In this document: one piece after another, positions 2,210-9,460 of the stretch
How positions within the stretch are numbered: position 1 is the first letter of the stretch
How the letters are laid out: the number at the start of each line of letters is the position of its first letter
DNA from: a virus
IMG/VR virus record: IMGVR_UViG_3300045988_046889
Direction: 5' to 3' (one strand)
Length of the DNA: 64,000 nucleotides
Position numbers and translations under genes: made by a program
Notes under the pieces: generated by a model
The model's database searches: none
What the model was told of the DNA's origin: nothing
Seen by the model: the letters and a program-made list of their open reading frames with translations, nothing else

Positions 2210-2411
2210 TTCCAATGTGTGTCTAATCAATTAAATAAAGAAGACCTATATTCACATACCAGCCTTCTGTAGCAATATTACTATTGCCCAAACTAAAAAC
2301 CAATCTTACTTATGCAAACAAAACTATACCCTTATATGAGTAAGTATCATTATAACTTTCTTTGTACTCCCAACAAGACTTGAACTTGTGTCTTAAAGTT
2401 AAAAGAAATAG

Positions 2412-2485
2412 TGGCTGATGGGGGACTCCAACTCCCAACCTGAGGTTTAGGAAACCTCTGCTCTATGCAGTTGAGCTAATCAGCC
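2412..2485 (-). tRNA. tRNA-Arg(CCT)
   Basis: Reverse complement folds as a cloverleaf: acceptor GGCTGAT/ATCAGCC, anticodon stem GAGGT/ACCTC with loop TTCCTAA; D- and T-loops are atypical (T-loop TTGGAGT). Confidence 0.45.
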
Positions 2486-2841: not shown

Positions 2842-3138
2842 CTAACCCCCTATTAAATGTCTCTTTAGGATTAATTTTTCTTCTTCTTGATAATTGTATT
2901 CCAATCCTTGAAGCTGCTTTATAGGAATACCACCTACTGTAATGTCTGTTGTATCCTCACAACAAGGAGATATTGAAACTACCTGCATTGGAGTGCTGTA
3001 CATTGGTGAATCTATTAGGTCATCTATTTTCACCTCGGAATAATCACACAAGAAGGCATATTTCTTTAAATTAGCACCTATAATCTGCCTGGATGTGAGG
3101 TACTCTTTGGTGTAGACTACATAAATTATTCGTGTCAT
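2842..3138 (-). CDS. hypothetical protein
   Basis: 98-aa ORF with ATG start. Confidence 0.45.
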   Translation of the reverse strand: MTRIIYVVYTKEYLTSRQIIGANLKKYAFLCDYSEVKIDDLIDSPMYSTPMQVVSISPCCEDTTDITVGGIPIKQLQGLEYNYQEEEKLILKRHLIGG

Positions 3139-3990: not shown

Positions 3991-4295
3991 ACAGATAAAA
4001 TTTGATTGTTTGCTAATTTTTCAAGGATGAATGGTTATTGTACACAGTAAAAACAACTATGTATTACCCCATTTGTTACTTTTCTAATGTGAGGATAATA
4101 GTCTTACTGGAAGGGGTTTGTTTGATAAATTTTACCATCTGATTGTTCCCTTATCTTATTCTATATCACCATGTTAGACCCAATAAGAGTATTACTTATT
4201 GTAAATATTGCTTACTACATAATATGAGGTGTAGCATATCTAAGAAGTTATACTAAGAGGTAACTAATTCCTATTTGTATACTTTCACACAACAA

Positions 4296-5064: not shown

Positions 5065-5441
5065 CAGTTGTGTTGGAGTAACAAGTACTTCAGGATAGAG
5101 ATTCATCAACTCTTAAAAGCATAGATGACCCTTTATAATCAGGAGTTTATTTGGGCACAGCAGCTTAGGAAAGCAAAGGATACTAAGAAGGCTACAGGCA
5201 AGTGCCCCACTTGAAGAGGATTACAAATAAGTATTTAGCCGAGCTTTAGGCCAAGTCTTCAAGGGTGGTGTAAAAGACTACAGAGATAACACAGAGTGAG
5301 AACTAATAATATATAAACGGGGTAAAAGACTGATTATAAGGATGCAAGCCATAATGCTGGCAGGGTCTCTTTATATTTTAAGAAAAGATTTGATAATTCT
5401 AGATTCTGTTGGAATAAGGATAAATAGGTTATATAGATAAG

Positions 5442-5843
5442 ATGATTAAGATAAAAGAAAGTATTAAGTGGTTGTGGCAGCTACCACAAAACATGTTGGC
5501 TTTGTGCATTGAAGGTGTACTATGTAGTACAGCATACAGGGAGGGTGAAGCAGATGGCAATACCATTATAGTGAATAGTGTATTACCTTCAGCTATGTCT
5601 TTGGGAGATTATCTCTTTGTAAACCCTATGTCTTCAGAAAGGACAATTAAGCATGAGTGTGGACACAGTAAGCAATCAGATATATTGGGTCCTTTATATT
5701 TGATAGTAATTGGAGCACCCTCATTACTACATAATATAATACATTCTATATGTAGTAGAGCAGGGTTTAAGTGGGATTACTACAGCTTCTATACTGAGAA
5801 GTGGGCTGACAGATTAGTAGGTATAGACAGGAGTATCTCTTAG
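5442..5843 (+). CDS. small HExxH-motif protein (putative zinc metallopeptidase-like)
   Basis: 133 aa; the motif HECGH sits in the middle of the protein; ATG start. Confidence 0.4.
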   Translation: MIKIKESIKWLWQLPQNMLALCIEGVLCSTAYREGEADGNTIIVNSVLPSAMSLGDYLFVNPMSSERTIKHECGHSKQSDILGPLYLIVIGAPSLLHNIIHSICSRAGFKWDYYSFYTEKWADRLVGIDRSIS

Positions 5844-5939
5844 GTAGATACCTAACCAGCTTATTTTCTCACCTTCTAGTGGAAAATTGCTATAATAAAA
5901 AAAGAGCTGGTAATATTTGGATGTGTGAAAAATAATACT

Positions 5940-5947
5940 TATCTTTG
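5940..5947 (+). promoter_or_regulatory. Bacteroidota-type -7 promoter element (TAtcTTTG) upstream of the tRNA array
   Basis: tatctttgcag about 115 nt upstream of the first tRNA. Confidence 0.4.
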
Positions 5948-6063
5948 CAGTGTCAAAGATAAGAAGATAAGAAATGTGTTTTAGGATTAAAGAAGTACTA
6001 CCTTTTTTTTCTTGATAATCTGTTCATACTTGCGTATTTCTAACATAAAGGTAGTACTTCTTT

Positions 6064-6134
6064 TTCTTTATTTTGTCTTGTGGTGTAAAGGTAACACATG
6101 GGTCTTTGGTCCCCACATTGTAGGTTCAAGTCCT
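6064..6134 (+). tRNA. tRNA-Gln(TTG)
   Basis: acceptor TGTCTTG/CAAGACA, D-stem GTGT/ACAC, anticodon loop CTTTGGT, T-arm GTAGG-TTCAAGT-CCTGC. Confidence 0.5.
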
Positions 6135-6153
6135 GCCAAGACAACAAGAAGAT

Positions 6154-6225
6154 GCCCTCTTAGTACAAAGGACAGTACATAAGTCTTCTAAACTTAGAAT
6201 ATAGGTTCGATTCCTATAGGGGGTA
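6154..6225 (+). tRNA. tRNA-Arg(TCT)
   Basis: acceptor GCCCTCT/AGGGGGT, D-stem GTAC/GTAC, anticodon stem TAAGT/ACTTA with loop CTTCTAA, T-loop TTCGATT. Confidence 0.65.
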
Positions 6226-6233
6226 CTTGTTAT

Positions 6234-6305
6234 GGGGATGTAGACTATGGGTTAGGTCATAGCCCTTTCAAGGCTAAGGATAAGGTTCAAATCCTTACTT
6301 CCCTA
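6234..6305 (+). tRNA. tRNA-Glu(TTC)
   Basis: anticodon stem TAGCC/GGCTA with loop CTTTCAA; U8, D-stem GACT/GGTC; T-arm TAAGG-TTCAAAT-CCTTA. Confidence 0.6.
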
Positions 6306-6310
6306 CTAAT

Positions 6311-6383
6311 AGATTATGTGGTGTAGTGGTCTGCATATCACACTGTCAATGTGAAGGCTAGGGTTCAATTCCCTCATAATCTG
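6311..6383 (+). tRNA. tRNA-Asp(GTC)
   Basis: acceptor (A)GATTAT(G)/(C)ATAATC(T), anticodon stem TCACA/TGTGA with loop CTGTCAA, T-loop TTCAATT. Confidence 0.6.
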
Positions 6384-6443
6384 CCCCGTTTATAAGAAAG
6401 TCCTATATCACAGCGGTGATTAGGCAAATGGAAAGGTAACTGA

Positions 6444-6704
6444 ATGGGATTCAGCCTAGTCTTGAAAACTAAGGGAACAGTAAAATGTTTGGGGGTCGGG
6501 ACCTCATCTTTCCGCATGAATAGCAAAAGAATAGGTAATATAGGAGAAGCTAAAGCTTTAGCTAAATTTGTAGAATTAGGTATCCCTGTTTATATACCAT
6601 TTGGTGACAATGAATCAGCAGACTTAATAGCTGAATTTAATGGTAAACTAAACAAGATACAATGTAAAACTACTGCTGCCATAAGTGAGCAATATGGAGA
6701 GTAA
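6444..6704 (+). CDS. hypothetical small protein inside the tRNA array
   Basis: 86-aa ORF with ATG start; its last codons overlap the 5' end of tRNA-Ser(GCT). Confidence 0.25.
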   Translation: MGFSLVLKTKGTVKCLGVGTSSFRMNSKRIGNIGEAKALAKFVELGIPVYIPFGDNESADLIAEFNGKLNKIQCKTTAAISEQYGE

Positions 6705-6781
6705 ATTGCTGAGGTAGCAATCCCCTCTGCTAAAGGGTGAGTACAATAAAATGTATGTGTTTCGAGTACACTGCTCTCCGC
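6697..6781 (+). tRNA. tRNA-Ser(GCT), long variable arm
   Basis: acceptor GGAGAGT/GCTCTCC (7 bp, one GU), D-stem ATTG/CAAT, anticodon loop CTGCTAA, 16-nt variable arm, T-arm TGTGT-TTCGAGT-ACACT. Confidence 0.5.
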
Positions 6782-6884
6782 AATAAACATTATGTAGGAG
6801 TTAAGGTATGAGGCTGGGTTCTTCCTACTTATATAGGTGTAATAGTGTACATAAAAACTTATGTAAAGCCAGCCAACGATAACA

Positions 6885-6957
6885 TAGTAGTAGCCTAATG
6901 GGTGGGGCACTGCATTTGGGATGCAGAGGATGCAGGTTCGAGTCCTGTCTACTATAC
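6885..6957 (+). tRNA. tRNA-Pro(TGG)
   Basis: acceptor ATAGTAG/CTACTAT, anticodon stem CTGCA/TGCAG with loop TTTGGGA, T-loop TTCGAGT. Confidence 0.65.
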
Positions 6958-6969
6958 TAATCATTAATG

Positions 6970-7042
6970 GGGAGGTAGCATAAATGGATAATGCGCTAGA
7001 TTTGCACTCTGGAAGATTGGGTTCGAGTCCCACCTGCTCCAC
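6970..7042 (+). tRNA. tRNA-Ala(TGC)
   Basis: acceptor GGGGAGG/CTGCTCC including the G3:U70 alanine identity pair; anticodon stem CTAGA/TCTGG with loop TTTGCAC; T-loop TTCGAGT. Confidence 0.65.
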
Positions 7043-7125
7043 ATTGTTTTCTTGTTTTTCATAATACTAAGCTATGCTTGAACCCTCTTTTGGGCAGTTA
7101 GAGGTTAAAGAAACTGCCCTATCAA

Positions 7126-7199
7126 TGCTCCTTAGTTCAGTGGTTCAGAATAGTTCCCTTACAAGGAAAAGGTCATAGGTTCGAGTCCTATAGGAGCAA
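7126..7199 (+). tRNA. tRNA-Val(TAC)
   Basis: acceptor TGCTCCT/AGGAGCA, anticodon loop CTTACAA, T-arm ATAGG-TTCGAGT-CCTAT. Confidence 0.6.
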
Positions 7200-7204
7200 C
7201 TAAT

Positions 7205-7276
7205 GGGGATGTAGCTGGAAGGTCTATGCACTTGGCTGTTAACCAAGAGATAAAAGTTCGATTCTTTTTATCCCCG
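7205..7276 (+). tRNA. tRNA-Asn(GTT)
   Basis: acceptor GGGGATG/TATCCCC, anticodon stem CTTGG/CCAAG with loop CTGTTAA, T-loop TTCGATT. Confidence 0.6.
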
Positions 7277-7284
7277 CAAATTTT

Positions 7285-7356
7285 AGGTTCTTAGTTTAAT
7301 TGGCAAAACACTTCTCTCCAAAAGAAGAGTTATGGGTTCGATTCCTTTAGAATCTG
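7285..7356 (+). tRNA. tRNA-Trp(CCA)
   Basis: acceptor AGGTTCT/AGAATCT, D-stem GTTT/AAAC, anticodon stem CTTCT/AGAAG with loop CTCCAAA, T-loop TTCGATT. Confidence 0.65.
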
Positions 7357-7362
7357 CATTAT

Positions 7363-7434
7363 TGGCACATCTTCTAATGGTCAGGAAGCTACTCTGATAA
7401 GGTAGTAATCAAGGTTCAATTCCTTGTGTGCCAA
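7363..7434 (+). tRNA. tRNA-Ile(GAT)
   Basis: acceptor TGGCACA/TGTGCCA, anticodon stem CTACT/GGTAG with loop CTGATAA, T-arm CAAGG-TTCAATT-CCTTG. Confidence 0.65.
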
Positions 7435-7440
7435 CTATAT

Positions 7441-7512
7441 TCTGATGTACTTCAACGGTAGAAGGCTGCTCTCATAAGGCAGTAGTTAGTGGTTCAAGTC
7501 CACTCATCAGAA
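7441..7512 (+). tRNA. tRNA-Met(CAT) (elongator, initiator or Ile2-type not resolved)
   Basis: acceptor TCTGATG/CATCAGA, anticodon stem CTGCT/GGCAG with loop CTCATAA, T-arm AGTGG-TTCAAGT-CCACT. Confidence 0.65.
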
Positions 7513-7518
7513 CTTCAT

Positions 7519-7592
7519 ACTCACTTAGCTCAGTTGGTTAGAGCAGGAATCTTATACATTCAAGGTCAATGGTTCAAGTCCATTAGTGAGTA
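7519..7592 (+). tRNA. tRNA-Ile(TAT) (tentative)
   Basis: acceptor ACTCACT/AGTGAGT, D-region GCTCAGTTGGTTAGAGC, 4-bp anticodon stem with loop CTTATAC, T-arm AATGG-TTCAAGT-CCATT. Confidence 0.45.
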
Positions 7593-7596
7593 CTAA

Positions 7597-7666
7597 TGCT
7601 CCTATAGCTGAATTGGTTAAAGCAACAGTCTCTTAAACTGTGGGTTCAAGTCCCAGTGGGAACACT
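7597..7666 (+). tRNA. degenerate tRNA-like element (anticodon-arm-like ACAGT-CTCTTAA-ACTGT would read CTT/Lys; no valid acceptor stem or variable loop)
   Basis: 5' half resembles a tRNA (GCTCCTATAGCTGAATTGGTTAAAGCA); the T-arm-like hairpin ACTGtGGG-TTCAAGT-CCCAGT abuts the anticodon arm; the 3' end cannot pair with the 5' end. Confidence 0.3.
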
Positions 7667-7669
7667 CAT

Positions 7670-7741
7670 TTCCCTAAAGCATTGGTGGTGATGCTAGAGA
7701 CCTTTAATCTCTGGAACTAGGTTCAACTCCTAGTGGGGAAA
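7670..7741 (+). tRNA. tRNA-Lys(TTT)
   Basis: acceptor TTCCCTA/TGGGGAA, D-stem GCAT/ATGC, anticodon stem AGAGA/TCTCT with loop CCTTTAA (C at position 33 is unusual), T-arm CTAGG-TTCAACT-CCTAG. Confidence 0.55.
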
Positions 7742-7770
7742 CATAATTGTTTAACTCCAAATTTTACAGT

Positions 7771-7878
7771 TATGAGAAGAGTTCTTGATTTTATTAAGAA
7801 AGCTGGTAATGTTTATGTAAGAATCATTGCTAAGAGTCAGATGATGACTCCTACAGGGTCTATTCCAATACCGGAATA
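7771..7878 (+). CDS. possible 35-aa micro-ORF in a gap of the tRNA array
   Basis: ATG...TAA ORF (MRRVLDFIKKAGNVYVRIIAKSQMMTPTGSIPIPE); no other support. Confidence 0.15.
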
Positions 7879-7905
7879 ACCCTTCATTTGGAGGTAAACT
7901 AATTA

Positions 7906-7988
7906 GGGGTAGCTTTAATGTGGTGAATTAAAGCAGACTGTAAATCTGCTGCCATGGGCTATTTAAGGTTCGATTCCTTTCTGCCCCA
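7906..7988 (+). tRNA. tRNA-Tyr(GTA), long variable arm
   Basis: acceptor GGGGTAG/CTGCCCC, anticodon stem GCAGA/TCTGC with loop CTGTAAA, 14-nt variable arm, T-arm TAAGG-TTCGATT-CCTTT. Confidence 0.6.
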
Positions 7989-8055
7989 CTTCAATAGAAA
8001 TCAAAGTCCTTGACTTATGGAAGGTGATGCAGGTAGAGATGCAAATAAGTCATTT

Positions 8056-8130
8056 GGGTACTGGGCAGGTCTGGTGACATTGCGTGAGACTGAAAATCTC
8101 AAGAACAAAGTTTGATTCTTTGAGTACCCA
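8056..8130 (+). tRNA. tRNA-Phe(GAA)
   Basis: acceptor GGGTACT/AGTACCC, anticodon stem TGAGA/TCTCA with loop CTGAAAA, T-arm CAAAG-TTTGATT-CTTTG. Confidence 0.65.
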
Positions 8131-8136
8131 CCTAAT

Positions 8137-8224
8137 GCCCCTTTGGTGGAACAGGTAGACACAATAGCCTTAGAAGCTATGCTGAAGTAATAGTAAGGTA
8201 AGAGTTCGAGTCTCTTAGGGGGTA
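8137..8224 (+). tRNA. tRNA-Leu(TAG), long variable arm
   Basis: acceptor GCCCCTT/AGGGGGT, anticodon stem ATAGC/GCTAT with loop CTTAGAA, 19-nt variable arm, T-arm AAGAG-TTCGAGT-CTCTT. Confidence 0.6.
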
Positions 8225-8280
8225 CTAAAAATAATTTGAAAATAATTAAGTAAATGCTTGGTTATATCATAAGTTTTACT

Positions 8281-8288
8281 TAACTTTG
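8281..8288 (+). promoter_or_regulatory. Bacteroidota-type -7 promoter element (TAacTTTG)
   Basis: taactttgca 21 nt upstream of the ATG at 8309. Confidence 0.4.
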
Positions 8289-8308
8289 CATTATTAAAAT
8301 AAGAGAAT

Positions 8309-8755
8309 ATGTTTGAGGAAGAGAGTTTATTTACTCCAATAGAATCAGATAGGGATATGTTATCCGGTTCTTCACAACTATTCATAGATTTCTTGAATCA
8401 GATTGAAGGTTGGAAGACTAAATGTAAGAATCTACATTGGGCAGCTCCTAAAAAGAATATACATGTATATCTTGATGAGTTCCTTGAAATCCTATCAGAC
8501 TACCAAGATAGTCTTGCAGAAGGTTACATGGGCATACTAGGTAAGATGCAGCCTAATGCTATCAAAGGCACTTCAAGTGATGCATTGAATGCTTACACAT
8601 TTATAGCAGAGGTTAAATCTGCCACCTTAGCATTTTATGCTAAGATACCACAGGATGTTATCTATAAGGGTATTACTTCAGAATGTGAGACTTTCATTCA
8701 GAACATCAACAAGTATGATTACTTGTTCCACTTATGTGATATAAGACCATATTAA
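8309..8755 (+). CDS. hypothetical protein embedded in the tRNA array
   Basis: 148-aa ORF with ATG start and its own -7 promoter motif. Confidence 0.5.
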   Translation: MFEEESLFTPIESDRDMLSGSSQLFIDFLNQIEGWKTKCKNLHWAAPKKNIHVYLDEFLEILSDYQDSLAEGYMGILGKMQPNAIKGTSSDALNAYTFIAEVKSATLAFYAKIPQDVIYKGITSECETFIQNINKYDYLFHLCDIRPY

Positions 8756-8761
8756 GACACC

Positions 8762-8834
8762 GTCCCCTTAGTGTTAATGGTTAGCAAGCTTGTCTTGTAA
8801 ACAAGAAGAGAAGGTTCAAATCCTTTAGGGGGCT
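8762..8834 (+). tRNA. tRNA-Thr(TGT)
   Basis: acceptor GTCCCCT/AGGGGGC, anticodon stem CTTGT/ACAAG with loop CTTGTAA, T-arm GAAGG-TTCAAAT-CCTTT. Confidence 0.6.
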
Positions 8835-9020
8835 CACAAGTTACTAAAAGCTGTCTTATCTACAGTGAGAGAGTAACACTCAATGCTACTAGATAAACCT
8901 CGGCAGGAGCTGACCTGCGCCACTGAAATTAAAAAGCTCGATGAGGTGTAGGTGATTGAGGGTGCAAGTTAAGGTGATACTTGCAATGCCTAAGTACCAG
9001 TTGCCAAATCTTAGGCTCTT

Positions 9021-9092
9021 GTAGATATGGTGTTAGCGGTAGCATATGACATTGCCAATGTCAAGGGGTCAGTTCAAGTCTGATTATCTACT
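9021..9092 (+). tRNA. tRNA-Gly(GCC)
   Basis: acceptor GTAGATA/TATCTAC, anticodon stem TGACA/TGTCA with loop TTGCCAA, T-arm GTCAG-TTCAAGT-CTGAT. Confidence 0.65.
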
Positions 9093-9096
9093 CAAT

Positions 9097-9167
9097 GTGG
9101 GATTAGTGTAATGGTAACATGTAACCCTTCCAAGGTTAATTTGACAGTTCGAGTCTGTTATCCCACT
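9097..9167 (+). tRNA. tRNA-Gly(TCC)
   Basis: acceptor GTGGGAT/ATCCCAC, anticodon stem TAACC/GGTTA with loop CTTCCAA, T-arm GACAG-TTCGAGT-CTGTT. Confidence 0.65.
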
Positions 9168-9175
9168 CTAACATC

Positions 9176-9243
9176 GCGGAGAGAATTGGTATTCAATCCA
9201 GTCTCATAAGCTGGACTCCAAGTGTTCGATTCACTTCTCCGCA
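9176..9243 (+). tRNA. tRNA-Met(CAT), second copy
   Basis: acceptor GCGGAGA/TCTCCGC (7/7), anticodon stem CCAGT/GCTGG with loop CTCATAA, T-loop TTCGATT; the D-arm is short. Confidence 0.55.
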
Positions 9244-9259
9244 ACTAGTTTAAATTGAT

Positions 9260-9460
9260 ATGGAAAAGAGTAGAATGACAAGGACTAAGATAGAGAAGGG
9301 TCAAGAAGTGCATCAGACTATGCATGCTTTGACTGCTGATAATCTTAGGGGAATTGTGAAGGAAGCCAATTCCTTAGGGATTAAAAGGGAAGATATAGTC
9401 TCTCTCTTAGAGGAAAGAGGTCAGTATGTATTAATATACTATTATGGAGGAGAAGCTTAA
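9260..9460 (+). CDS. hypothetical small protein
   Basis: 66-aa ORF with ATG start, immediately after the tRNA array. Confidence 0.4.
   Translation: MEKSRMTRTKIEKGQEVHQTMHALTADNLRGIVKEANSLGIKREDIVSLLEERGQYVLIYYYGGEA

Follow-up and report, generated by a model that had tools for sequence, protein, structure and literature searches.

Two 8/4 serine tRNAs and an apparently undescribed pseudoknotted RNA in the tRNA array of a crAss-like phage

What does a long phage tRNA array hold besides the tRNAs that default tools report? The question is raised by the IMG/VR virus record IMGVR_UViG_3300045988_046889, of which a stretch of 64,000 nucleotides (hereafter the window) was analysed, and in which positions 6064 to 9243 carry an array of tRNA genes interrupted by open reading frames (ORFs) and unexplained gaps. 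In an earlier note, made from the letters alone, the tRNAs had been folded by hand and it had been suggested that the gaps may hide non-canonical tRNAs or small RNAs. This suggestion was borne out, since a serine tRNA with an 8-bp acceptor stem and a 4-bp T stem (8/4 architecture) lies in the gap 6384-6696 and a pseudoknotted RNA lies in the gap 8835-9020. The spacers and ORFs listed in that note also lie where it had placed them.

Based on comparison with public genomes, the locus is very probably the tRNA operon of a crAss-like Bacteroides phage (Kahnovirus, Steigviridae), with passengers and two 8/4 serine tRNAs. Over 84% of its length, the region 5800-9400 shares 96.5% identity with the uncultured phage cr85_1 (MT774390), which is classified as Kahnovirus oralis (Crassvirales, Steigviridae), and the more distant matches are crAss001, the PhiCrAssBcn isolates and Kehishuvirus, all of them Bacteroides phages. 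The cr85_1 record already has a tRNA array and a "putative DpsA" gene annotated at the same place, and the array of crAss001 (MH675552) is syntenic with that of the window, with identical gene order; the order common to the window and crAss-like arrays is Gln-Arg-Glu-Asp-...-Ser-Pro-Ala-Val-Asn-Trp-Ile-Met-...-Lys-Lys-...-Phe-Leu-DpsA-...-Thr-Gly-Gly-Met. For crAss001, 25 tRNA genes predicted with ARAGORN have been described (Shkoporov et al., 2018, PMC6235969). Judged by these matches, the array as a kind of object is already known, and a nearly identical genome is public. What is added here is two unannotated 8/4 serine tRNAs, a corrected reading of an ORF of 86 amino acids (aa), and an apparently undescribed pseudoknotted RNA. 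The 8/4 Ser(UGA) and the pseudoknotted RNA are annotated in neither public record (cr85_1, crAss001), and Ser(GCU) is also unannotated in cr85_1. The crAss-like phages rank with the most abundant viruses in the human gut, and the tRNA genes reported for them come from default ARAGORN runs; the list in the cr85_1 record is of the same kind as that of crAss001.

Two serine tRNAs with 8/4 architecture

tRNA genes were called with ARAGORN at its default setting and then at score thresholds of 90% (-ps90) and 80% (-ps80), and the calls were compared with the Rfam tRNA model (RF00005, gathering score 29 bits). The default run gave 20 plus-strand tRNAs, the first starting at 6074 and the last ending at 9245, together with a minus-strand Arg(cct) at 2411-2485; at the gathering score, the Rfam model confirmed 18 of these 20 as well as Arg(cct), and also scored an element at 7598-7664. 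At -ps90 over the full 64 kb, exactly two genes were added, Ser(tga) at 6430-6515 and Ser(gct) at 6696-6781. The final count is 22 intact tRNA genes and one pseudogene in the plus-strand array, while Arg(CCU) stands separately on the minus strand. The 21 array tRNAs and the degenerate element of the earlier note are thus real, and Ser(UGA) at 6430-6514 had been overlooked. All the identities and anticodons that it listed, including an Ile(TAT) given with a question mark and an Arg(CCT) on the other strand, agree with ARAGORN (default or -ps90) and Rfam. The covariance-model check that it proposed succeeded for 18 of the hand-folded genes and Arg(cct); even at E<=10, Rfam gave no match to Lys(ttt) at 7670-7742, Met(cat) at 9175-9245, Ser(UGA) or Ser(GCU). 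The last of these had been folded by hand correctly: missed by default ARAGORN and by Rfam, it is called at -ps90 and supported by family covariation. The two serine genes are as follows.

6430..6514, plus strand, tRNA-Ser(UGA), anticodon at 6463-6465; ARAGORN -ps90 (6430-6515) and family covariation
6696..6780, plus strand, tRNA-Ser(GCU), anticodon at 6729-6731; ARAGORN -ps90 (6696-6781) and family covariation

Could these be serine tRNAs of an unusual shape? The gap 6387-6523 is kept at 68-82% identity in crAss001, Kehishuvirus, cr112_1 and a rodent-gut crAss-like virus, and likewise in a 635-kb phage, Cellulophaga phage phi10:1 and Prevotella Lak megaphages, each copy adjoining tRNA genes. 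Their common core takes the fold of a serine-type tRNA, and its anticodon loop, CUUGAAA, is invariant. In the window copy, the eighth acceptor pair is T6437-A6506, the T stem is GGGG/CCTC with the T loop GTCGGGA, the variable arm is long, the D stem has 6 bp (CTGAAT/ATTCAG) around a 3-nt GGG loop, and the discriminator is G6514. A pattern composed of the anticodon loop and the T arm matched at least 120 IMG/VR loci. Among the 86 distinct sequences of the family, 94.7% of the cells are paired and 22 of the 28 pairs change on both sides, with a covariation of 0.650 against 0.177 for shuffled alignments and at most 0.127 when the partners are slid. The eighth acceptor pair is UA in 60 sequences, GC in 16, AU in nine and CG in one, and is unpaired in none of the 86; wherever the 3' base is anything but A, the alternative fifth pair of the T stem turns into a mismatch such as T.C or T.T. 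The consensus D stem has 6 bp, all six covarying, with a CGGC-type loop of 4 nt, and the discriminator is G in 68 sequences, T in 15 and A in three.

For Ser(GCU), the acceptor is GGAGAGTA/TGCTCTCC with the eighth pair A6703-T6772, the T stem is GTGT/ACAC, the D stem has 5-6 bp with a loop of 5-7 nt, the variable arm is long and the discriminator is G6780; ARAGORN's own drawing also has an 8-bp acceptor and a 4-bp T stem, and the candidate fifth T-stem pair would be T.T. Its T arm, GTGTTTCGAGTACAC, recurs in about 40 serine-type tRNAs (GCU or GGA) from very different viral contigs. In the 39 sequences of this GCU/GGA family, 94.9% of the cells are paired, the covariation is 0.675 against 0.186 shuffled, and the eighth pair is AU (29), UA (6), GC (3) or CG (1), with none of the 39 unpaired. 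The variable-arm helix changes on both sides at five of five pairs in the UGA family and four of five in the GCU/GGA family. In both families the T arms stay identical even between very different phages, whereas the sequences of the D, anticodon and variable stems are free to vary; the anticodon loops (CUUGAAA and CUGCUAA) are canonical. Based on this covariation, both genes are assigned to phage-borne families with an 8/4 acceptor/T-stem architecture. With more than 100 phage contigs carrying one or other of the two lineages, they offer a natural system in which to ask why phages keep this shape.

Such (8/4) tRNA-Ser genes, with a long variable arm, a G73 or U73 discriminator and a long D stem like that of tRNA-Sec, have been described from bacteriophages, proteobacteria and rumen Clostridia (Mukai et al., 2017, Nucleic Acids Res 45:2776, PMC5389517). 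The present genes share with this class, and with the allo-tRNAs, the 12-bp acceptor branch split 8+4, the long variable arm, the G73 or U73, the long D stem and the presence in phage tRNA clusters. They differ from allo-tRNAs in that their anticodons are true serine anticodons (UGA, GCU, GGA) and nothing points to recoding; indeed, nothing in the array indicates a change of the genetic code. They differ also from the tetraloop D arm of the (8/4) class, the D loops in the window having 3 nt and 5-7 nt, and their hosts are Bacteroides phages, which are absent from the list in PMC5389517. No literature linking crAss phages with allo-tRNAs was found. The 8/4 serine tRNAs belong to a known but rare class that is apparently unreported in crAss-like phages.

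The 8/4 architecture is the reason why default tools and GenBank annotations miss both genes. Default counts thereby miss at least one serine isoacceptor in both cr85_1 and crAss001, and both isoacceptors in cr85_1. For example, crAss001 carries an unannotated 8/4 Ser(UGA) (locus L020, 2182-2266) that is absent from the default ARAGORN output, while its Ser(GCU) is an ordinary 7/5 tRNA. In 185,579 bacterial and archaeal species genomes, the Ser(UGA) pattern matched 36 contigs scattered over unrelated phyla; set against the IMG/VR loci, this suggests that the lineage is mainly phage-borne. Seven Nocardia genomes (L273, L275, L282, L283, L286, L293 and L297; one of them a complete chromosome) carry the pattern. 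A mini RNase P RNA or a signal recognition particle (SRP)-like RNA at 6398-6520, suggested by the string "GAAAGTCC", was also considered and rejected, the core having folded as a serine tRNA in agreement with ARAGORN -ps90.

The other tRNA genes, all called by ARAGORN at default except the pseudogene, are listed below with their Rfam scores.

2411..2485, minus strand, tRNA-Arg(CCU), apart from the array, 56 bits
6074..6145, plus strand, tRNA-Gln(UUG), 57.2 bits
6154..6226, plus strand, tRNA-Arg(UCU), 63.9 bits
6234..6306, plus strand, tRNA-Glu(UUC), 60 bits
6310..6386, plus strand, tRNA-Asp(GUC), 58.7 bits
6884..6957, plus strand, tRNA-Pro(UGG), 66.8 bits, allele different from cr85_1
6969..7040, plus strand, tRNA-Ala(UGC), 50.5 bits, G3:U70 read as G6971-T7038
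7126..7200, plus strand, tRNA-Val(UAC), 66 bits
7205..7277, plus strand, tRNA-Asn(GUU), 56.8 bits
7285..7357, plus strand, tRNA-Trp(CCA), 59.1 bits
7363..7435, plus strand, tRNA-Ile(GAU), 60.8 bits
7441..7513, plus strand, tRNA(CAU), elongator Met or lysidine-type Ile, 65.7 bits
7519..7593, plus strand, tRNA-Ile(UAU), reading AUA, 65.4 bits
7598..7664, plus strand, tRNA-Lys(CUU) pseudogene, 40.6 bits with six model positions deleted
7670..7742, plus strand, tRNA-Lys(UUU), non-canonical C33 and A8, ARAGORN only
7906..7989, plus strand, tRNA-Tyr(GUA), long variable region, 37 bits
8056..8132, plus strand, tRNA-Phe(GAA), 47.2 bits
8137..8225, plus strand, tRNA-Leu(UAG), 51.9 bits
8762..8835, plus strand, tRNA-Thr(UGU), 50.6 bits
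9021..9093, plus strand, tRNA-Gly(GCC), 51.8 bits
9097..9168, plus strand, tRNA-Gly(UCC), 62.9 bits
9175..9245, plus strand, tRNA-Met(CAU), initiator-like, ARAGORN only

The G3:U70 identity pair of tRNA-Ala, already remarked on in the earlier note, is visible in the sequence. Rfam misses Lys(UUU) and the Met at 9175 because of the odd features seen in the ARAGORN drawings, namely C33 and A8 in the former, and a C1xA72 mismatch and reduced D region in the latter. U at tRNA position 33 is nearly universal, and the crAss001 copy of tRNA-Lys(UUU) has a normal U33. The C1xA72 mismatch of Met 9175 (C9175 opposite A9243) is a trait of bacterial initiator tRNA-fMet; a single nucleotide separates its acceptor and D stems, and the D stem has 3 bp. 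The bottom of its anticodon stem (UCCAGU/GCUGGA) has the loop-proximal pairs A-U, G-C and U.G in place of three consecutive G:C pairs, and for this reason it is termed only initiator-like. The Lys(CUU) pseudogene, which default ARAGORN does not call, has lost seven nucleotides (TGGACTC) that made up the variable loop together with the 5' strand of the T stem, and has acquired a C3.A70 mismatch besides; the copy aligned with it in cr85_1 is an intact 75 nt.

As the earlier note had stated, no suppressor anticodon (CTA, TCA or TTA) was called by ARAGORN at either threshold. Hidden His, Cys or suppressor tRNAs, including an 8/4 tRNA-His, were looked for in the whole window at -ps90 with no result, and ARAGORN reported no tmRNA in the window. 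The extra -ps80 calls are not credible, being a "Cys(aca)" on the Lys pseudogene, a "Trp" overlapping Lys(UUU) and a "Leu" inside a Dps-like ORF.

The pseudoknotted RNA between tRNA-Thr and tRNA-Gly

What, then, fills the gap between tRNA-Thr and tRNA-Gly? The element found there has the following parts.

8838..9015, plus strand, 178-nt pseudoknotted RNA, indicated by covariation and its position in a tRNA slot
8840-8845/8872-8877 and 8850-8853/8863-8866, plus strand, helices P1 and P1a
8856-8862 with 8890-8896, plus strand, 7-bp pseudoknot of the P1a loop with a downstream strand
8879-8884/8955-8960 and 8898-8901/8943-8946, plus strand, helix P2 and the variable helix P3
8964-8968/8980-8984 and 8989-8994/9010-9015, plus strand, helices P4 and P5

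The first 50 nt recur in Kolpuevirus "frurule" and cr126_1, and between the window and Kolpuevirus every stem is preserved by compensatory changes. With a pattern built on the invariant 5' hairpin, 56 IMG/VR loci were matched, and 25 distinct sequences of 136-196 nt were aligned. In this alignment 98.7% of the cells are paired, both sides change at five of the seven pseudoknot pairs, five of six in P2, three of five in P4 and four of six in P5, and the covariation is 0.450 against 0.140 shuffled and at most 0.112 slid. The GC-rich hairpin GCAGG-agctga-CCTGC to which the earlier note had drawn attention is present at 8903-8918; it is, however, no stand-alone element but part of an insertion of about 40 nt in P3, confined to the Kahnovirus-like lineage.

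The RNA starts 2-5 nt past tRNA-Thr(UGU) and ends 4-6 nt ahead of Gly or the initiator-like Met. This spacing indicates that it occupies a tRNA slot, and the slot position in turn implies release by RNase P and the 3'-end processing enzymes. In crAss001, which is without the RNA, Thr and Gly are adjacent. In Kolpuevirus "frurule" (L226, about 2642-2715), an initiator-like tRNA-Met directly follows the RNA; it appears at -ps90 only and is in neither GenBank nor the default ARAGORN output.

Has this RNA been described before? In Rfam 15, even at E<=10, nothing overlaps 8838-9015 (in a 3.6-kb search) or matches the 136-nt Kolpuevirus copy, the pattern has no match in the species genomes searched above, and no literature on crAss phages and a pseudoknotted RNA of the Thr-Gly slot was found. 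A catalogue of 10,006 candidate viral RNAs has been published (Fremin et al., 2023, PMC10690425). The pseudoknotted RNA is therefore strongly supported and apparently undescribed, as judged against Rfam and the literature. It is a clean candidate for a new phage non-coding RNA, and Kolpuevirus "frurule", which grows on Bacteroides cellulosilyticus, is a cultured carrier.

A covariance model of the RNA found one further diverged crAss-like copy (L027, 103 bits), as well as weak matches (E = 0.002-0.045) in unrelated phage contigs with 22-25 tRNAs, L101 and L112. A pattern from the latter two yielded seven distinct sequences with the same helix order and compensatory changes of their own. With this distant subfamily added, both sides change at three of the six P1 pairs, although the alignment was fitted to the model and such counts lean towards the structure. 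In some of its members (e.g., L112, L309, L310, L311 and L314), P5 is followed by a T run and then by a protein gene. A tRNA-like 3' end (GGTTCGAATCCTGTCCTGACTACA), uncalled by ARAGORN, precedes the RNA in the distant subfamily (L101 at about 3080-3133, L112, L309-L316).

A small RNA from the spacer of a tRNA operon would have a parallel in the 3'ETS-leuZ of E. coli. Like it, the phage RNA would be a non-tRNA RNA with ends set by tRNA-processing cuts in a polycistronic tRNA precursor; in size and degree of structure, however, with its six helices and the pseudoknot, it goes far beyond 3'ETS-leuZ. We propose tentatively, and with somewhat less than an even chance of being right, that 8838-9015 is the founding example of a new family of phage pseudoknotted stable RNAs, which would occupy a slot in tRNA operons, be processed by the host and act in trans, and which would occur in several crAss-like genera and probably also in unrelated phages with large arrays, with none found in bacterial genomes. 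Alternatively, 8838-9015 could have its role in cis and not as a free stable RNA. It could be a platform for processing or an insulator, or else a switch that responds to a ligand or protein and governs read-through into the downstream Gly, Gly and Met genes. We regard this as doubtful. The RNA always lies directly upstream of a tRNA, the last helix and T run of the distant subfamily resemble a terminator, and other spacers of the array have conserved hairpins too. However, its flanks of 2-5 and 4-6 nt match the tRNA-to-tRNA spacing, so tRNA processing would cut both ends; the 7-bp pseudoknot and two conserved loops of 11-15 nt exceed the needs of an insulator; and crAss001 manages without it.

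Expression and possible role of the array

How would such an array be transcribed? In the earlier note it was held to form one polycistronic precursor driven from a -7 element at 5940. This calls for a correction: TANNTTTG alone, tried as a promoter signal, is not enriched (72 found in the window against 66.9 expected), and the longer motif AYTTANCTTTGCA occurs inside the array as well. The latter is found six times in the window, all on the plus strand (5054, 5937, 8278, 15062, 28074 and 43769), against 1.56 expected, a count not attained in any of 100 shuffles. Probably the motif represents a phage promoter consensus of the Bacteroides -7 type. Two copies concern the array.

5937..5949, plus strand, promoter-like motif ACTTATCTTTGCA, containing the TAnnTTTG "-7" element, about 125 nt upstream of the first tRNA
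8278..8290, plus strand, promoter-like motif ACTTAACTTTGCA, 19 nt upstream of the Dps-like ORF

The second is of the enriched AYTTANCTTTGCA type, in keeping with the promoter motif of its own that the earlier note had given to the 148-aa ORF. Since AYTTANCTTTGCA lies both at 5937 and at 8278, probably at least two transcription units cover the array, not necessarily one. Scans for sigma-70 promoters (15 against 13.3) and for terminators (4 against 3.0) stayed at chance level.

The array most likely works as follows. Long precursors would be transcribed from two phage promoters of the Bacteroides "-7" type, one near 5937 and one near 8278; these precursors host RNase P and the 3'-end processing enzymes would cut at spacers of 2-12 nt, and the freed tRNAs would read the codons that the phage favours, leaving phage translation less dependent on the host tRNA pool. 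The operon would serve at the same time as a landing pad and carrier for the decayed endonuclease, the 35-aa micro-protein gene and the Dps-like gene described below, the spacer hairpins and the pseudoknotted RNA, the last of which would replace a tRNA in the Thr-[x]-Gly slot and be freed as a discrete stable RNA by the tRNA-processing cuts.

Codon usage was taken from 20 long ORFs of the window. Arginine is encoded by AGA (57%) and AGG (42%) with about 1% CGN, AUA makes up 48% of the isoleucine codons, and GC3 (the G+C fraction at third codon positions) is 0.35. The array supplies Arg(UCU), Arg(CCU) and Ile(UAU), 12 of its anticodons begin with U, and 77% of the codons are readable by the phage tRNA set with simple wobble. 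The serine codons UCA and AGU are common in the phage, and Ser(UGA) and Ser(GCU) are the sole serine tRNAs of the array. Because the usage of AGA/AGG and AUA matches the tRNAs of the array, codon supplementation is its best-supported role.

Could the array instead protect translation from host defence? The near-complete set would then make good the loss of host tRNAs to anticodon nucleases and other defences aimed at tRNAs, and the odd shapes would aid escape from those nucleases. The set covers 18 amino acids, which goes beyond the needs of codon bias, and the fixed T arms of both 8/4 families amid varying stems, together with the mostly phage-borne distribution of the Ser(UGA) family, could be read in the same direction. 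However, the canonical anticodon loops give no obvious escape from anticodon nucleases, and the close fit to AGA, AGG and AUA is what codon supplementation predicts, so we consider counter-defence rather unlikely as the main role. It should be noted that the two roles are not exclusive.

Several points weigh against the reading of the locus as a translational operon with 8/4 serine tRNAs. Both serine families were gathered with patterns that fix the T arm, and the length of the T stem is tested solely through the flanking pair. Taken alone, the window copy of Ser(UGA) could pair as 8/4 (T6437-A6506) or as 7/5 (T6490-A6506), and it is called 8/4 because of its family and not because of that copy. 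The C33 of Lys(UUU) and the reduced D region of Met 9175 mean that some members may be poor or non-translational tRNAs. In addition, transcription units, maturation and charging in the phage are matters that we infer, and the notion of phage-biased codons rests on the usage of the phage and on general knowledge of Bacteroides.

It is improbable that the two serine-like elements are tRNA-like relics, or regulatory or decoy RNAs, and not translational tRNAs: although neither reaches the default thresholds of ARAGORN and Rfam, the T loop GUCGGGA of Ser(UGA) is without the usual T54 and A58, and some allo-tRNAs are inactive in translation (Mukai et al., PMC5389517), every stem shows strong compensatory change over 86 and 39 distinct sequences, the 7-nt anticodon loops with serine anticodons are invariant, the long variable arms and mostly G73 discriminators are identity elements of seryl-tRNA synthetase (SerRS) according to the same authors, no other tRNA of the array serves the common UCA and AGU codons, and the true relic nearby, Lys(CUU), shows decay by contrast.

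Passenger genes, spacer elements and mosaicism

Between the two serine genes lies a protein-coding remnant.

6516..6704, plus strand, 62-aa ORF, N-terminal half of a PD-(D/E)XK endonuclease (Pfam PF11645), overlapping the first 9 nt of Ser(GCU)

The earlier note had an 86-aa ORF in the gap 6384-6696. An ORF is indeed there, a truncated PD-(D/E)XK with its true start at ATG 6516, while in the longer reading the first 24 codons are a translation of the Ser(UGA) gene, an artefact that is seen in contig L252 as well. The 62-aa ORF matches PF11645 with 56.9 bits (cut-off 26.1, E = 2.9e-15) over profile positions 1-53 of 138, PHROG 5018 with E = 3.9e-18, and PDB 2ost with E = 0.0044 (residues 3-53 against 4-54 of 151). 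With only 53 of 138 profile positions, and a stop at 62 aa where a complete domain has about 125-150 aa, it is filed as a remnant and not as an active enzyme. Seven other viral contigs carry the identical truncation, six of them identical over the aligned 59 residues and one with a single substitution, and full-length PF11645-type relatives of 125-130 aa sit in the tRNA arrays of other phages among the fetched loci. The fragment is missing from cr85_1 (L001), and another small gene, Gp5, takes its slot in crAss001. Such a pattern would be expected if a free-standing homing endonuclease had invaded the array, carrying flanking alleles with it, and had decayed afterwards. A split intron-containing tRNA at 6387-6883 with an intron-borne endonuclease was rejected: no group I or II intron model matched at E<=10, and the endonuclease ORF stands free between two serine genes that are both intact.

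The closest precedent is SegB in the T4 tRNA cluster (PMC2330249), likewise a phage tRNA operon in which the tRNA genes are interspersed with genes for other stable RNAs and with a homing endonuclease gene that is free-standing. As with SegB, only some relatives have the endonuclease gene, and the flanking alleles differ; SegB, however, is an intact GIY-YIG enzyme, whereas that of the window is PD-(D/E)XK and truncated. Many unrelated phage contigs (L031, L048, L053, L062, L100, L178, L214, L251, L252, L261 and L266) have PF11645-like genes within or next to their tRNA arrays, which suggests that this family commonly homes into tRNA clusters. Another relative is I-Ssp6803I (PDB 2OST), the gene of which lies in a group I intron that interrupts a tRNA-fMet gene of a cyanobacterium. 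It shares with the remnant Pfam PF11645, the alignable N-terminal 51 residues and the tRNA-gene context; unlike it, the remnant keeps about 53 of the 138 profile positions and is free-standing between intact tRNA genes, with no intron detected.

Two further protein genes are carried in the gaps.

7772..7879, plus strand, 35-aa micro-ORF MRRVLDFIKKAGNVYVRIIAKSQMMTPTGSIPIPE, conserved at the amino-acid level
8309..8755, plus strand, 148-aa Dps/ferritin-like ORF; the homologous coding sequence is "putative DpsA" in cr85_1 and crAss001

ORFs of 27-37 aa occupy the same place upstream of tRNA-Tyr in nine diverged crAss-like loci with a DNA identity of 66-85%, and M1, V4, Y15, T28 and G29 are invariant in the peptides, with the PTGxIP motif kept. 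It is a real micro-protein gene, with no Pfam or PHROG match. For the 148-aa ORF, the family matches are weak, namely DUF5856 with 26.9 bits (cut-off 34.6, E = 1e-5) and PHROG 858 with E = 6.5e-6, as is that to the PDB Dps structure 2d5k (E = 0.19).

Several spacers hold hairpins.

5989..6064, plus strand, leader hairpin, 17-bp perfect inverted repeat AAAGAAGTACTACCTTT / AAAGGTAGTACTTCTTT around a loop of 42 nt, with a T-rich run after it
6400..6425, plus strand, conserved hairpin CCTA-t-ATCAC-agcg-GTGAT-TAGG directly upstream of Ser(UGA), -8.5 kcal/mol, z = -2.03
7092..7119, plus strand, Ala-Val spacer hairpin GGGCAGTT-agaggttaaaga-AACTGCCC in the gap 7041-7125
7856..7882, plus strand, hairpin GGGTCTATTCC-aatacc-GGAATAACCC spanning the stop codon of the micro-ORF, then TTCATTT
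8012..8051, plus strand, Tyr-Phe spacer hairpin in the gap 7989-8055, outer stem GACTTAT/ATAAGTC, inner stem TGCA/TGCA, loop GGTAGAGA invariant in relatives

The leader hairpin (fold of 5950-6073, -26.6 kcal/mol, z = -2.38) could be an attenuator, a processing site or a protein-binding site. The hairpin upstream of Ser(UGA) is kept in crAss-like relatives with altered stems, for example CCTCTgCCAA-agag-TTGGAGAGG in crAss001. That of the Ala-Val spacer has compensatory stems in relatives (GGGTAGTT/AACTACCC and GGACAGTT/AACTGTCC) around the invariant loop AGAGGTTAAAGA. In the Tyr-Phe hairpin, the inner stem has five complementary versions among relatives (TGCA, TGTA/TACA, TGTG/CACA, TAGG/CCTA and CTAG), and the outer stem covaries in L228. 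The simplest guess for the last two spacer hairpins is processing or insulation of folding. The hairpin at the micro-ORF stop codon is part of a region, 7743-7892, that folds with z = -3.64 against shuffles, and its structure is kept in relatives with a different sequence, GGAACTATTCC-agtt-GGAATATAGTTCC. The string AAGGTGA is common to the P4 loop of the pseudoknotted RNA (8970-8979, TTAAGGTGATA) and the internal loop of the Tyr-Phe hairpin (8020-8029, GGAAGGTGA), which may be chance.

Unlike cr85_1, the window has the endonuclease fragment and a broken Lys(CUU), and its alleles of Ser(GCU), Pro and Leu are not those of cr85_1. The segment 6524-6911 is mosaic, a shorter and different segment standing in its place in cr85_1, which across this replacement shares just the 3' third of Ser(GCU) and has a different tRNA-Pro allele. 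It includes a further feature.

6781..6883, plus strand, variable spacer, part of the mosaic segment, shared with only one other fetched locus (L017)

This spacer folds no better than shuffles (z = -0.01). The tRNA-Leu(UAG) at 8137-8225 resembles the crAss001 allele and not cr85_1, and its swap, together with 6524-6911 and 5429-5915, shows cassette-like mosaicism between genomes that are 96% identical. At the Leu(UAG) position, cr85_1 (L001, 3591-3764) has two different genes, one of which ARAGORN calls "tRNA-???". In crAss001 (L020, about 4140-4237), an apparent tRNA-Tyr(GUA) with a variable region of about 40 nt can be seen, which is neither in the GenBank record nor in the default ARAGORN output.

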